DNA of 52,258 nucleotides from a virus (IMGVR_UViG_2721755660_000011); one strand, 5' to 3'; positions 1 to 3,780 are shown, counted from the stretch's first letter. Translations and numbers: made by a program. The notes: generated by a model from the sequence alone, not told the origin.

Positions 1-603
1 TCATGGATTTTTTTGACTGAAAGCGACAATGTAAGAACAACTCTGGCCGCTATCTGGGTTTCTCATTTGGTACTCGCTGGCAAAGGTAAGAGCAAGACAA
101 TCACCGGCTTGTAAATGCTGAGTCTGATGATTGACTCGAAAATCAAGGCTGCCGCTTAACATCCATAGAGTTTGTCCAGAAAGATGCTCATTTGCAGAGG
201 CAGGGATAGTCAATTGCCCCATAGGGGGGATTTCAACTTTTATTAGTTCCGGACATGCACCCGCTGGGGACAAAGACCAGCGGGTAATGCCTGTTTCTTC
301 ATCAATCCAATGTTGTTGCTGGTCAGTCAAAAGTACAAGTGAATTCTGTTGCATCTCAAGCTCTGCAAAAAGCTTTGATAGCGTAATATTCAGTGCATTA
401 GCTAACCGACTAAGTATTGTTGCACTGGGGCTTGAAGTGCCTCGTTCAACTTTGCTGATCATCGCCTGACTGACACCAGATCGTTGGGCAAGCTCTGTAA
501 CAGTCAAGTTTCGAGACTTTCTGAGCTTGAGTAACAAACGTGCAATATCGCTATCGACTATCTGATTTTTAGCTCTTTTATCCATTCTTCTCCCCTCTTT
601 CAC
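1..603 (-). CDS. XRE-family HTH transcriptional regulator with C-terminal cupin-like domain
   Basis: ORF 200 aa; N-terminal HTH segment (LTVTELAQRSGVSQAMISKVERG) typical of XRE/Cro-C1 family; C-terminal beta-rich region consistent with cupin sensor. Stop codon at window position 1..3. Confidence 0.55.
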   Translation of the reverse strand: MKEGRRMDKRAKNQIVDSDIARLLLKLRKSRNLTVTELAQRSGVSQAMISKVERGTSSPSATILSRLANALNITLSKLFAELEMQQNSLVLLTDQQQHWIDEETGITRWSLSPAGACPELIKVEIPPMGQLTIPASANEHLSGQTLWMLSGSLDFRVNHQTQHLQAGDCLALTFASEYQMRNPDSGQSCSYIVAFSQKNP

Positions 604-1083
604 CGACCTGATTATGCCATTACATAAATTGCGATTAAATAAATGATTTTACACGTCTCAAATGCATTTTTTCTATACGTTATAGCTTTAGAGTAAGAGC
701 TGGTAACTTCAACTTCCGTATTTGGCACATAACAGTCCTGGATACAGTGACGCACAGTTTCTTTACAAAAACATAGCTACATAGAGGTTGATCATCGTGT
801 CAAATGTACTGTAGAAATACCTACAATAATATTTTTTTTGCTAATATGCGTATAAATGAATAACTATAGACAGATAAAAATATCAGCAAAAATAAAATTT
901 CCAGCACATTAAACCACAACAATAATACAACACTTGGCAAGTTGACCATAAAGAATGAATAAAACGAAACAATAATTCAAACTTAAACAAACTATAAACA
1001 GTTAAACAATATACAATTGACTCATTAAGTTAGATATAAAAAATACATATTCAATCATTAAAACGATTGAATGGAGACCTTTT

Positions 1084-2037
1084 ATGCGGGCGAAACTTCT
1101 GGGAATAGTCCTGACAACCCCTATTGCGATCAGCTCTTTTGCTTCTACCGAGACTTTATCGTTTACTCCTGACAACATAAATGCGGACATTAGTCTTGGA
1201 AATCTGAGCGGAAAAACAAAAGAGCGTGTTTATCTAGCCGAAGAAGGAGGCCGAAAAGTCAGTCAACTCGACTGGAAATTCAATAACGCTGCAATTATTA
1301 AAGGTGCAATTAATTGGGATTTGATGCCCCAGATATCTATCGGGGCTGCTGGCTGGACAACTCTCGGCAGCCGAGGTGGCAATATGGTCGATCAGGACTG
1401 GATGGATTCCAGTAACCCCGGAACCTGGACGGATGAAAGTAGACACCCTGATACACAACTCAATTATGCCAACGAATTTGATCTGAATATCAAAGGCTGG
1501 CTCCTCAACGAACCCAATTACCGCCTGGGACTCATGGCCGGATATCAGGAAAGCCGTTATAGCTTTACAGCCAGAGGTGGTTCCTATATCTACAGTTCTG
1601 AGGAGGGATTCAGAGATGATATCGGCTCCTTCCCGAATGGAGAAAGAGCAATCGGCTACAAACAACGTTTTAAAATGCCATACATTGGCTTGACTGGAAG
1701 TTATCGTTATGAAGATTTTGAGCTAGGTGGCACATTTAAATACAGCGGCTGGGTGGAAGCATCTGATAACGATGAGCACTATGACCCAGGAAAAAGAATC
1801 ACTTATCGCAGCAAAGTCAAAGACCAAAATTACTATTCTGTTTCAGTCAATGCAGGTTATTACGTAACACCTAACGCAAAAGTTTATGTTGAAGGCGCAT
1901 GGAATCGGGTTACGAATAAAAAAGGTAATACTTCACTTTATGATCACAATGATAACACTTCAGACTACAGCAAAAATGGTGCAGGCATAGAAAACTATAA
2001 CTTCATCACTACTGCTGGTCTTAAGTACATTTTTTAA
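1084..2037 (+). CDS. ompT: Outer membrane protease OmpT (omptin family)
   Basis: 317 aa translation matches my recollection of E. coli OmpT essentially end to end (signal peptide MRAKLLGIVLTTPIAISSFA, C-terminal beta-barrel ending in F). Confidence 0.9.
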   Translation: MRAKLLGIVLTTPIAISSFASTETLSFTPDNINADISLGNLSGKTKERVYLAEEGGRKVSQLDWKFNNAAIIKGAINWDLMPQISIGAAGWTTLGSRGGNMVDQDWMDSSNPGTWTDESRHPDTQLNYANEFDLNIKGWLLNEPNYRLGLMAGYQESRYSFTARGGSYIYSSEEGFRDDIGSFPNGERAIGYKQRFKMPYIGLTGSYRYEDFELGGTFKYSGWVEASDNDEHYDPGKRITYRSKVKDQNYYSVSVNAGYYVTPNAKVYVEGAWNRVTNKKGNTSLYDHNDNTSDYSKNGAGIENYNFITTAGLKYIF

Positions 2038-2223
2038 CGAAGTTAACCAGATTTTCTCCCGGGTGGTATTGTATAACCCCGGGGAATTTGTTTACAGTTA
2101 CAAGTAGACAATATCCACTAATTTTGTAAGCATTTAACCTATGTCATAACGTGTAATCTCTTACCGCAACACAAGACCTCAATATATTCAAATTTTATCT
2201 TTATTCCGATATTCAGAGACACA

Positions 2224-3708
2224 ATGCGAAAAATAATTACTCATTTCAAAGTTGTTTTAACGTTACTTCTACCAGTAACCGTATCTGCCCAGCAGATACA
2301 GTGGCAATCCTGTATGGCCAGTCAATTCAACCACTGGTTTGGTGAGGAAAAACCGTCTCCTGACTTACTATGTGGTTATTTGTCTGTTCCATTAAAATAT
2401 ACAGACACAGGCGGAGATGCTTCTTATGAAAAAAAATCACAAGTCAAACTAGCGTTGACAAAATTGCCGGCAAAAAGCAAGCATAAAGGAAGTATCCTGA
2501 TAATAAGTGGTGGTCCCGGGTTACCAGGCATAAATCCTTATATTAACTTTGACTGGCCAGTCACAAATCTTCGTGAGTCATGGGATATTATTGGATTTGA
2601 TCCTCGAGGCGTCGGACAGTCCACTCCGACAATAAACTGCCGGCAATCAGATACAGAGACTCAGGAAAACATAACCGGAAAGCAACAAGTATTAAATAAA
2701 ATTAATGCCTGTATCCATAATACCGGAGCCGAAGTCATTCGCCATATCGGCTCTAACGAGGCTGTATACGATATTGATCGTATTAGGCAAGCCTTGGGGG
2801 ATAAACAACTGACAGCCGTGGCGTATTCGTATGGAACTCAAATTGCAGCCTTATATGCAGAACGTTTTCCCTACAACGTAAGATCTATCGTTCTTGATGG
2901 AGTCGTCGATATCGATGACCTGGAGGACAACTTCACATGGCAACTCAAACAGGCACAGAGTTATCAGGAAACGTTTGATCGCTTTGCATCCTGGTGTGCG
3001 CGTACAAAAAGTTGCCCGCTTTCTTCAGACAGAGATAAGGCAATAACTCAGTTCCATGAGCTATTATCAAAATTACATCACAAACCTTTATTAGACAGTA
3101 AGGGAGAAAATATATCTTCAGATGAACTCATATCATTAACAACAGACCTTCTGCTATGGCGTTCATCATGGCCAACCCTTGCAACTGCCATACGCCAGTT
3201 CTCTCAGGGGATTGTCAGTAATGAAATTGAAACTGCGCTCAGTGCTCCGATAGCCTCAGAAGAGTCAAGCGATGCTTCGGGGGTAATCCTTTGTGTAGAT
3301 CAGGGGGATGAGCAATTAACACCAGAAGAGCGAAAATCCCGAAAAGACGCTCTTGCGAATGCCTTCCCGGCTATTAACTTTGACAATGGACGTTCCGATT
3401 CACCTGATTTTTGTGAATTATGGCCAATACATAGCGACCTGAACAAAACTCGCCTGAAAAATACTGTTCTGCCCTCTGGTTTACTGTTTGTAGCACACAA
3501 ATACGACCCAACAACGCCCTGGATTAATGCCCGTAAGATGGCAGAGAAATTTTCCAGCCCGTTACTAACAATAAATGGTGATGGGCATACATTAGCTCTC
3601 ACCGGAGTTAATTTATGTGTAGATAAAGCAGTTGTACATCACCTGATCACTCCACAAAAAATAGAAAATATATACTGCCCAGGAAATTCTGAAGCAGAAA
3701 TACAATAA
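2224..3708 (+). CDS. Secreted alpha/beta-hydrolase-fold peptidase-like protein
   Basis: 494 aa; N-terminal signal peptide (MRKIITHFKVVLTLLLPVTVSA); nucleophile-elbow-like motif AYSYG; GGPG motif near N-terminus reminiscent of S33/tripeptidyl-aminopeptidase-like hydrolases. Family assignment is from motif recall only. Confidence 0.5.
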   Translation: MRKIITHFKVVLTLLLPVTVSAQQIQWQSCMASQFNHWFGEEKPSPDLLCGYLSVPLKYTDTGGDASYEKKSQVKLALTKLPAKSKHKGSILIISGGPGLPGINPYINFDWPVTNLRESWDIIGFDPRGVGQSTPTINCRQSDTETQENITGKQQVLNKINACIHNTGAEVIRHIGSNEAVYDIDRIRQALGDKQLTAVAYSYGTQIAALYAERFPYNVRSIVLDGVVDIDDLEDNFTWQLKQAQSYQETFDRFASWCARTKSCPLSSDRDKAITQFHELLSKLHHKPLLDSKGENISSDELISLTTDLLLWRSSWPTLATAIRQFSQGIVSNEIETALSAPIASEESSDASGVILCVDQGDEQLTPEERKSRKDALANAFPAINFDNGRSDSPDFCELWPIHSDLNKTRLKNTVLPSGLLFVAHKYDPTTPWINARKMAEKFSSPLLTINGDGHTLALTGVNLCVDKAVVHHLITPQKIENIYCPGNSEAEIQ

Positions 3709-3729
3709 TTTCAAAATATTCCGCCATTT

Positions 3730-3780
3730 GCTCCCAATGCAAAACATATATTGCATTGGGAGCATATTCATATTTTTGTT
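3730..3780 (+). terminator. Rho-independent terminator after hydrolase gene
   Basis: Perfect inverted repeat gctcccaatgcaa ... ttgcattgggagc (3730..3763) followed by T-rich run (3772..3778). Confidence 0.5.

Follow-up and report, generated by a model that had tools for sequence, protein, structure and literature searches.

An ompT–hydrolase gene pair at the tail-fibre end of a thrW prophage of Escherichia coli and its relatives on phages and plasmids

Genes at the prophage end

We analysed a stretch of viral DNA of 52,258 nt (IMGVR_UViG_2721755660_000011; hereafter the window), which is 100% identical to the genome of Escherichia coli OkiPb01715 (NZ_AP042695.1), a bovine isolate from Okinawa. 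Near its start lies ompT, the gene for the outer-membrane protease OmpT, followed by a gene for a 494-aa hydrolase; we describe here this pair of genes, which appears to form a compact cassette recurring on prophages, phages and plasmids. That ompT lies on prophages is well known from textbooks. Its product cuts at dibasic sites at the cell surface and has been studied as a virulence and peptide-resistance factor, as well as a nuisance protease in biotechnology. All three genes that the initial annotation had placed within positions 1-3780 (ompT, the hydrolase gene and a regulator gene) are present there as open reading frames (ORFs):

1-603, minus strand: XRE-family helix-turn-helix (HTH) regulator with a possible cupin-like C-terminal domain (HTH_3 match; ORF from GTG at 603, RefSeq start at 585, 194 aa)
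604-970: AT-rich spacer (GC 0.32) between the regulator and the ompT proximal promoter, specific to the XRE-type context, i.e. that of enterohaemorrhagic E. coli (EHEC)
971-1083, plus strand: putative ompT proximal promoter and leader, common to prophages, phages, plasmid pH22 and K-12
1084-2037, plus strand: ompT, omptin outer-membrane protease, 317-aa precursor (Omptin profile)
2055-2093, plus strand: GC-rich hairpin following the ompT stop codon, its U-tract interrupted (fold of 2035-2225)
2224-3708, plus strand: predicted exported Hip1/TAP-like alpha/beta serine hydrolase, 494 aa (Pfam, Hip1 match, AlphaFold2 model)
3729-3764, plus strand: strong intrinsic-terminator-like hairpin with a 14-bp stem (terminator scan), closing the ompT–hydrolase unit
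3892-4107, minus strand: tfa remnant, C-terminal part only (Caudo_TAP profile positions 76-121 only; RefSeq pseudogene)
4409-5002, minus strand: functional-looking tfa (DUF4376; ORF listing, profile, annotation)
5002-7098, minus strand: stf side tail fibre gene (ORF listing, profile, annotation)
49637-50800, plus strand: integrase ORF, adjoining thrW
50805-50860: attL core, at the far end of the thrW prophage
50815-50890, minus strand: thrW, tRNA-Thr(CGT), at the far prophage end

The omptin assignment is unambiguous: the protein scores 432 bits against PF01278 (cutoff 22.6), covering profile positions 1-283 of 283, and 704 bits against NCBIfam NF008222 (cutoff 537). Residues D83, D85, D210 and H212 (mature numbering) are all present; Asp83/Asp85 and Asp210/His212 are the catalytic pairs known from the OmpT structure literature. 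Since the amino-acid identity to K-12 OmpT is 98.4%, the window OmpT is expected to have the same dibasic-site endoprotease activity.

A 56-bp attachment (att) repeat, comprising the 3′ part of thrW, occurs at 50805-50860 and again 813-868 bp left of position 1, where the attR copy lies between a yagP remnant and a GNAT acetyltransferase gene. The two copies bracket ompT, the hydrolase gene and the regulator gene, which are therefore located inside an att-bounded prophage, directly beyond stf and tfa, as had been proposed. The gene order at this end is ...stf-tfa-tfa′-hydrolase-ompT-regulator-acetyltransferase-attR; lom and J lie beyond stf on the minus strand. The attR-side junction matches the int-attP region of thrW-integrating phages of Sf/P22 type. 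Positions 500-4000 make an AT-rich island (GC 0.32-0.46 versus 0.50-0.63 in the tail genes).

A hydrolase of the Hip1/TAP family

The 494-aa protein matches Abhydrolase_1 with 115.9 bits (cutoff 25.8) and, in its C-terminal part, the TAP-like Abhydrolase_4 with 54.1 bits (cutoff 21). In an alignment of 18 sequences, down to 28% identity, Ser202 of the AYSYG nucleophile elbow, Asp428, His455 and the GGPG motif of the oxyanion loop at residues 96-99 are invariant, and ten cysteines, all past the predicted cleavage site, are invariant or nearly so. The elbow, the GGPG motif and a signal peptide had been read from the sequence at the outset and are borne out; a missing catalytic triad had been named beforehand as one of the grounds for giving up the proposal, and all three residues align.

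The N-terminus (MRKIITHFKVVLTLLLPVTVSA followed by QQ) begins with MRK, continues with a hydrophobic stretch and ends with VSA before QQ; inspection and hydropathy thus point to the n/h/c layout of a Sec-type signal peptide, predicted to comprise residues 1-21. Lipoprotein anchoring was considered and rejected, as no lipobox is present ahead of the first cysteine. The word ‘secreted’, used in the initial annotation, can be read for this protein only as predicted export across the inner membrane.

The closest relatives of solved structure are PDB entries of Mycobacterium tuberculosis Hip1/Rv2224c (E-value 3.5e-51, residues 21-475); the triad and the GGPG motif align to the corresponding Hip1 segments. 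The AlphaFold2 model of the hydrolase (pLDDT 86, pTM 0.87) was compared with the PDB by Foldseek: the top six fold matches are all Hip1, with TM scores 0.75-0.81, followed by TnmK1/2 and then, distantly, by prolyl aminopeptidases. The predicted fold is thus that of Hip1, in which a large helical lid is added to the hydrolase core. Hip1 (Rv2224c, CaeA; PDB 5UGQ/7SFM) thus shares with the window protein full-length homology, fold (TM ∼0.8) and the Ser-Asp-His triad. Both are cysteine-rich, and Hip1 is extracytoplasmic, a location that for the window hydrolase is predicted. The two differ in that identity in the Foldseek alignment is ∼26% and the window hydrolase comes from a Gram-negative host, which has a periplasm. 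GroEL2 is proteolysed by Hip1, a serine hydrolase of the cell envelope (PMC4022732); PDB depositors also give Hip1 the name ‘Carboxylesterase A’.

The ratio of nonsynonymous to synonymous substitution rates (dN/dS) is 0.13-0.15 for the hydrolase gene compared with its diverged copies and 0.08-0.20 for the omptin gene; both genes are under purifying selection. We rejected the possibility of a pseudogene or an inactive enzyme given the invariant triad, a dN/dS of ∼0.14 and the state of the gene in complete E. coli genomes (5,426 genomes, used for all counts of distribution), where 1,229 of the 1,253 genomes that carry it have at least 80% of the gene covered. The protein is probably an intact, selected serine hydrolase of the Hip1/TAP family residing in the periplasm.

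Limits and contexts of the ompT–hydrolase cassette

Breakpoints were located by blastn of the window against 12 loci. All phage and prophage contexts have a common block that begins at 835 or 971 and runs through 4093, with the right-hand junction at 4093-4106 in the tfa remnant in every one of them. On the left, homology to the hydrolase-bearing argU-type loci restarts at 835 and homology to K-12 at 971; position 971 is the left edge for both K-12 and plasmid pH22. The plasmid shares exactly 971-3792, i.e. a segment starting 113 bp ahead of ompT and reaching slightly beyond the terminator at 3729-3764. K-12 shares 971-2087 (96% identical), that is ompT with the post-stop hairpin, inside which its homology ends. 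We examined position 971 as a candidate argU att junction and rejected it, as window 1-1200 contains nothing that matches the argU core, which is situated 424-470 bp upstream of ompT. Taken together, the breakpoints outline ompT and the hydrolase gene as what appears to be a compact two-gene cassette, window ∼971-3792, in the non-essential ‘b’ region of lambdoid phages.

Prophages at argU, thrW and yecE, and Sp8 in O157 Sakai, carry the ompT–hydrolase block at their tail-fibre end. At the argU (DLP12) site many strains have the order nfrA-ybcH-envY / ompT-hydrolase-tfa′-ybcY, while the yecE-site prophage has acetyltransferase-regulator-ompT-hydrolase. Eleven deposited phage genome records contain the hydrolase gene at 99% identity or above (2G7b and ev243, two records each, Turner, PhiR26_1, PhiR29_1, PhiR29_2, PhiR30_1, PhiR49_1 and PhiR49_1_star), and in all four phage genomes inspected ompT is immediately upstream of it; 2G7b and Turner have the two genes between int/attP on one side and the tail-fibre genes on the other. 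The proposal that ompT travels as a moron of lambdoid phages is strongly supported by these prophage ends and phage records.

The lambda-like phages 2G7b, ev243, Turner and PhiR resemble the window in the order int-attP-ompT-hydrolase-tfa remnant in the b region, with 97% identity over 835-4093. They differ in that most integrate at argU rather than thrW and lack the regulator insertion, and in having ybcY between their tfa copies. In O157:H7 Sakai the three genes ECs1664-ECs1663(ompT)-ECs1662 stand in the same order at the Sp8 end, ∼99% identical over window −118..3974, with ECs1662 annotated as ‘hydrolase’. Sakai differs in prophage and chromosomal site; most of the acetyltransferase gene has been removed there by IS629, and ISEc8 lies between the hydrolase gene and the tfa remnant. 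Sp8 is annotated as ending before ECs1664; because phage PhiR29_1 packages homologous regulator and acetyltransferase genes, the true Sp8 end is probably beyond ECs1664, truncated by IS629 (NC_002695.2, 1662679-1663351).

K-12 was cited in the initial annotation for its ompT at the end of DLP12 at argU with the neighbours appY and envY, and this comparison holds. The order is tfa remnant-appY-ompT / attR / envY; ompT is the last gene before attR and the tfa remnant is the same as in the window, but a convergent regulator gene of AraC type, appY, takes the place of the hydrolase gene, the XRE/GNAT insertion is absent and the att site is argU. A 47-bp argU att core is found 424-470 bp upstream of ompT in K-12, OkiPb01715 and others, so that DLP12 ends with ompT as its last gene, and envY belongs to the chromosome.

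Distribution in complete genomes

ompT was found in 3,094 of the 5,426 genomes (3,254 places), the hydrolase gene in 1,253 (23%) and the regulator region in 393; the whole 4.4-kb module, at a coverage of at least 80%, is present in 352. Hydrolase sequences are at least 99% identical in 1,212 of 1,261 matching records. Genomes with the whole module or the regulator region are, among the matches listed, mostly O157:H7. The idea that hydrolase and regulator are conserved core-genome neighbours of ompT is rejected by the counts, in agreement with the initial annotation. Its suggestion that the hydrolase is an extra of this particular strain did not hold: the gene accompanies ∼40% of ompT genes, O157 Sakai ECs1662 included. 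What is extra in OkiPb01715 is a whole second copy of ompT, of K-12 type (appY-ompT-envY), at argU (NZ_AP042695.1, 686972-690199; L021:28473-31700). The lambdoid argU prophage that carries it is complete-looking, and the strain thus has two ompT copies on two prophages.

Diverged omptin–hydrolase pairs

Diverged copies of the hydrolase gene again occur immediately downstream of a co-oriented omptin gene, across four omptin lineages on phages and plasmids. Identities of omptin and hydrolase, respectively, to the window pair are as follows:

ColV-type plasmid pH22: 89 and 96%
contigs L014 and L015: 71-72 and 81%
contigs L027 and L028 (hydrolase P0005): 72 and 78%
OmpP plasmids, including F: 69 and 76%

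Spacers between the two genes are 92-186 bp long and each opens with a GC-rich hairpin. On the F plasmid, ompP (32322-33269) is followed after ∼100 bp by a co-oriented gene for a Hip1-like hydrolase (33374-34861), with the same post-stop hairpin; this pair differs from that of the window in being plasmid-borne, in its shorter spacer and in its identity (∼69% for the omptin and ∼76% for the hydrolase). Both genes are present on 156 F-like plasmids. The diverged pairs on plasmids suggest that the pairing is old, older than the OmpT/OmpP split, and that the K-12 arrangement ompT-appY is probably a derived replacement.

The regulator as a separable element

The initial annotation described the regulator as XRE-cupin and counted it as a part of the protease module. 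The XRE part stands, with an HTH_3 score of 61.9 bits (Pfam cutoff 23), while the cupin part is a match below threshold (Cupin_2, 19.6 bits versus the 27.2-bit cutoff). A weak NCBIfam PuuR match (43 bits against a cutoff of 211) extends over both domains, residues 22-195; PDB sequence matches cover the HTH domain only. The regulator gene is transcribed divergently from ompT. On its other side is the acetyltransferase gene:

−868..−24, plus strand, left of the window (L001:19132-19976): GNAT acetyltransferase, 145 aa (RefSeq annotation), with attR

This gene is convergent with the regulator gene and ends 24 bp before the 3′ end of the latter. A GNAT/XRE toxin–antitoxin pair was rejected, as the genes are convergent rather than co-oriented; the acetyltransferase has no match among the PADLOC models.

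In the argU-type phages an att-proximal segment of 160 bp (window −845..−686, ∼80% identity) is followed almost at once by window 835, which makes the acetyltransferase and regulator genes a 1.5-kb indel. The acetyltransferase–regulator pair also precedes GNAT-sitABCD, with 97.6% identity over window −747..678, in an icd-site prophage of an O2:H6 strain (L006) that has no ompT at this place, so that the regulator is not dedicated to the protease. Phages PhiR29_1 and PhiR29_2 match the acetyltransferase–regulator segment at 98.6%, and both genes are in the PhiR29_1 annotation. We conclude that the regulator is a separable att-proximal element outside the protease unit, and that its inclusion in a protease module has to be given up.

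The claim that the XRE protein is nevertheless a dedicated transcription factor of ompT, of the hydrolase gene or of both, the three genes being one regulated protease module, seems improbable to us. It would fit the divergent orientation over a 480-bp AT-rich spacer and the retention of the trio in O157:H7, OkiPb01715, the yecE prophage and phages PhiR29_1 and PhiR29_2; EHEC-type distal upstream sequence is also said to correlate with high ompT expression, according to the passage of PMC6854850 that cites Thomassin 2012. Yet K-12-type loci with envY upstream are likewise reported as high-activity (PMC6854850), and the regulator is present in only ∼350-390 of ∼3,100 ompT-bearing genomes, is missing from most ompT–hydrolase cassettes and most cassette-bearing phage records, and is found beside GNAT-sitABCD without ompT. 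The regulator–ompT spacer holds no convincing operator-like inverted repeat, only two weak repeats.

Spacer 604-970 is 98.9% identical to that of O157 Sakai. Strain-specific ‘distal promoter’ sequences located >150 bp upstream of ompT have been reported to correlate with expression (PMC6854850); the 1.5-kb indel and the att junctions account for these differences in structural terms.

The att-adjacent segment is itself conserved: 160-210 bp (L001:19155-19314; L003, L004, L008-L010) are ∼76-81% identical between thrW-type and argU-type phages, although the att cores and the integrases of these phages differ.

Transcription signals

The only strong terminator of the unit, at 3729-3764, follows the hydrolase gene; none of comparable strength stands between ompT and the hydrolase gene. 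The hairpin at 2055-2093 was not called in a consensus terminator scan, and it is conserved after the omptin stop codon past OmpT, OmpP and related omptin genes (consensus of seven lineages, with mostly invariant pairs); it is probably a leaky terminator or a stabiliser of the 3′ end. One sigma-70-like match was found at 1017-1044. The promoter scan was not used as evidence because it gave fewer matches than shuffled sequence. In cultures of O157 Sakai, ECs1662 and ECs1663 are detectably expressed, co-vary and belong to the same expression cluster, with log2 changes of −2.53 and −2.72 on leaving exponential growth (PMC2241611).

Possible role of the cassette

On balance we favour a lysogenic-conversion cassette in which OmpT and an exported Hip1/TAP serine hydrolase act in the cell envelope. 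Both genes would be expressed together in the lysogen, starting at the ompT promoter; transcription would continue past the weak conserved hairpin, perhaps with some contribution from a weak internal promoter, and end at 3729-3764, the site of the strong terminator. The hydrolase would be exported by Sec, cleaved after Ala21 and folded in the periplasm with five disulfides, where, as a serine peptidase or an esterase, it would attack peptides of the envelope or incoming ones and so complement the dibasic endoproteolysis of OmpT at the cell surface. Finishing antimicrobial-peptide fragments and processing envelope proteins are plausible roles. The XRE regulator and the GNAT gene would be a separate att-proximal insertion that turned the distal upstream region of ompT into the EHEC type and is not an obligate part of the cassette.

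Several observations weigh against this cooperative reading. About 60% of ompT-bearing genomes have no hydrolase gene, and OmpT therefore does not need the hydrolase. Synonymous divergence differs between the two genes (∼1.0 versus ∼2), so that strict co-divergence is not proven. Export was assigned by sequence inspection, promoter assignments are weak, given the outcome of the scan, and the Hip1 family spans esterase activity as well as the non-hydrolytic enzymes TnmK1 and TnmK2. The hydrolase gene also occurs without an omptin gene, on a 262-kb plasmid and, in the form of a homologue of 528 aa with 78% identity, on a contig of E. coli (L030:2469-4055). No omptin gene was found beside the ∼50%-identity homologues in Salmonella, Serratia and Budvicia, or beside 80 distant homologue loci (mostly of Actinobacteria) among the matches listed in a scan of genome contigs.

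The last findings fit better with the main alternative, which we regard as doubtful: that the hydrolase gene is an independent moron beside ompT, at a prophage end prone to recombination, with no functional or transcriptional link to it and with a role of its own, such as that of an esterase, a lipase or a peptidase for nutrients. Each gene is found without the other (ompT with appY in K-12-type loci, the hydrolase gene on the plasmid and the contig just mentioned), the distant homologues listed have no omptin link, a hairpin stands between the two genes, and prophage ends are mosaic with sharp breakpoints. What this alternative leaves unexplained is that adjacency, orientation and a short spacer are maintained in four omptin lineages with identities of 69-89%, whether on phages or on plasmids. 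The OmpP-type spacer is only 92 bp, mostly occupied by the hairpin, leaving little room for a separate promoter; the segment shared with pH22 spans exactly the ompT promoter, both genes and the terminator that follows them; and the two genes show a similar change of expression in Sakai (PMC2241611).

It is unlikely that the cassette is a phage defence or exclusion module, in which surface OmpT, perhaps with the periplasmic hydrolase, would degrade components of competing phages and make the lysogen resistant to superinfection. In favour of such a module, ompT overexpression gave high fitness with T3 and T7 present in a genome-wide screen (PMC7553319), the place of the cassette is one in which lom, bor and other accessory genes of lambdoid phages are found, and PADLOC model PDLC01094 (‘C3a206’, TAP-like protein) matches the hydrolase over its full length (9e-56). 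Against it, that match is at family level only, OmpT has no PADLOC match, and the role published for OmpT is to cleave antimicrobial peptides of the host (PMC6854850).

The cooperative reading can be extended, tentatively, to the omptins of the E. coli mobilome as a whole (OmpT of lambdoid phages together with OmpP and its relatives from F-like and ColV-like plasmids): these may ancestrally have been the first gene of a two-gene operon whose second product is a periplasmic Hip1-like serine protease, the two giving proteolysis in two compartments. Candidate roles would be clean-up of host antimicrobial peptides, first at the surface and then in the periplasm, or processing of envelope, host or phage proteins.

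Two neighbourhoods of unpaired homologues may be mentioned. The omptin-less E. coli contig carries VirK-like (DUF535), LptD_N, PerC-family, polysaccharide-deacetylase and glycosyltransferase genes, a setting that resembles an invasion plasmid. In Budvicia diplopodorum (L026:341-5455) a 53%-identical homologue lies downstream of two genes, one for a phosphoethanolamine transferase of EptA type and one for a Fic protein. Enzymes of the former type modify lipid A and give resistance to cationic peptides; the link of the hydrolase family to peptide resistance that this neighbour offers is anecdotal.

Other features of the prophage

An element of the IS66 family is present at 26892-29480, beside the lysis genes; its ORFs of 216, 115 and 523 aa are typical of tnpA, tnpB and tnpC of ISEc8. 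Two tRNA genes, tRNA-Arg(TCT) and one with the anticodon CAT, are found downstream of an ORF of 352 aa (window 32975-33228 and 33269-34327) whose translation, read by eye, resembles a DNA methyltransferase. This layout near the lysis region recalls the tRNA cluster of lambdoid phages of Stx type. We rejected an Stx-phage identity, as no stx-like ORF was seen among those of at least 85 aa listed for 27-36.5 kb, whose translations were read by eye with no search aimed at stx.

Earlier descriptions and significance

The sequence itself is already annotated, in hundreds of genomes, in phage records and as Sakai ECs1662-1664; only the conserved omptin–hydrolase pairing looks undescribed. We found no mention of the pairing, or of the relationship to Hip1, in the open-access full-text literature, and such absence is not proof. 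The gene 186 bp downstream of ompT in the isolate ‘cystitis 6’ was called ‘ymcE, a putative cold shock gene’ (Desloges 2019, section 3.5; PMC6854850). The spacing is the same as between ompT and the hydrolase gene in the window (2038-2223), which suggests that the hydrolase gene was overlooked; the ‘ymcE’ of this isolate is probably the mis-annotated hydrolase gene.

About 40% of ompT genes, that of O157:H7 included, and ompP of the F plasmid thus come with a conserved, selected homologue of Hip1, a virulence protease of M. tuberculosis, and the ‘distal promoter’ differences on which differing ompT expression among pathotypes has been blamed are prophage-end junctions and a 1.5-kb indel. Should the two enzymes not cooperate, the hydrolase gene would simply add to the accessory genes of a mosaic prophage end. 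If they do, peptide-resistance assays and host-association studies of ompT and ompP should cover the partner gene as well; and if the two-compartment reading is true, decades of work on OmpT and OmpP in K-12, where appY occupies the place of the partner, would have missed half of the system.

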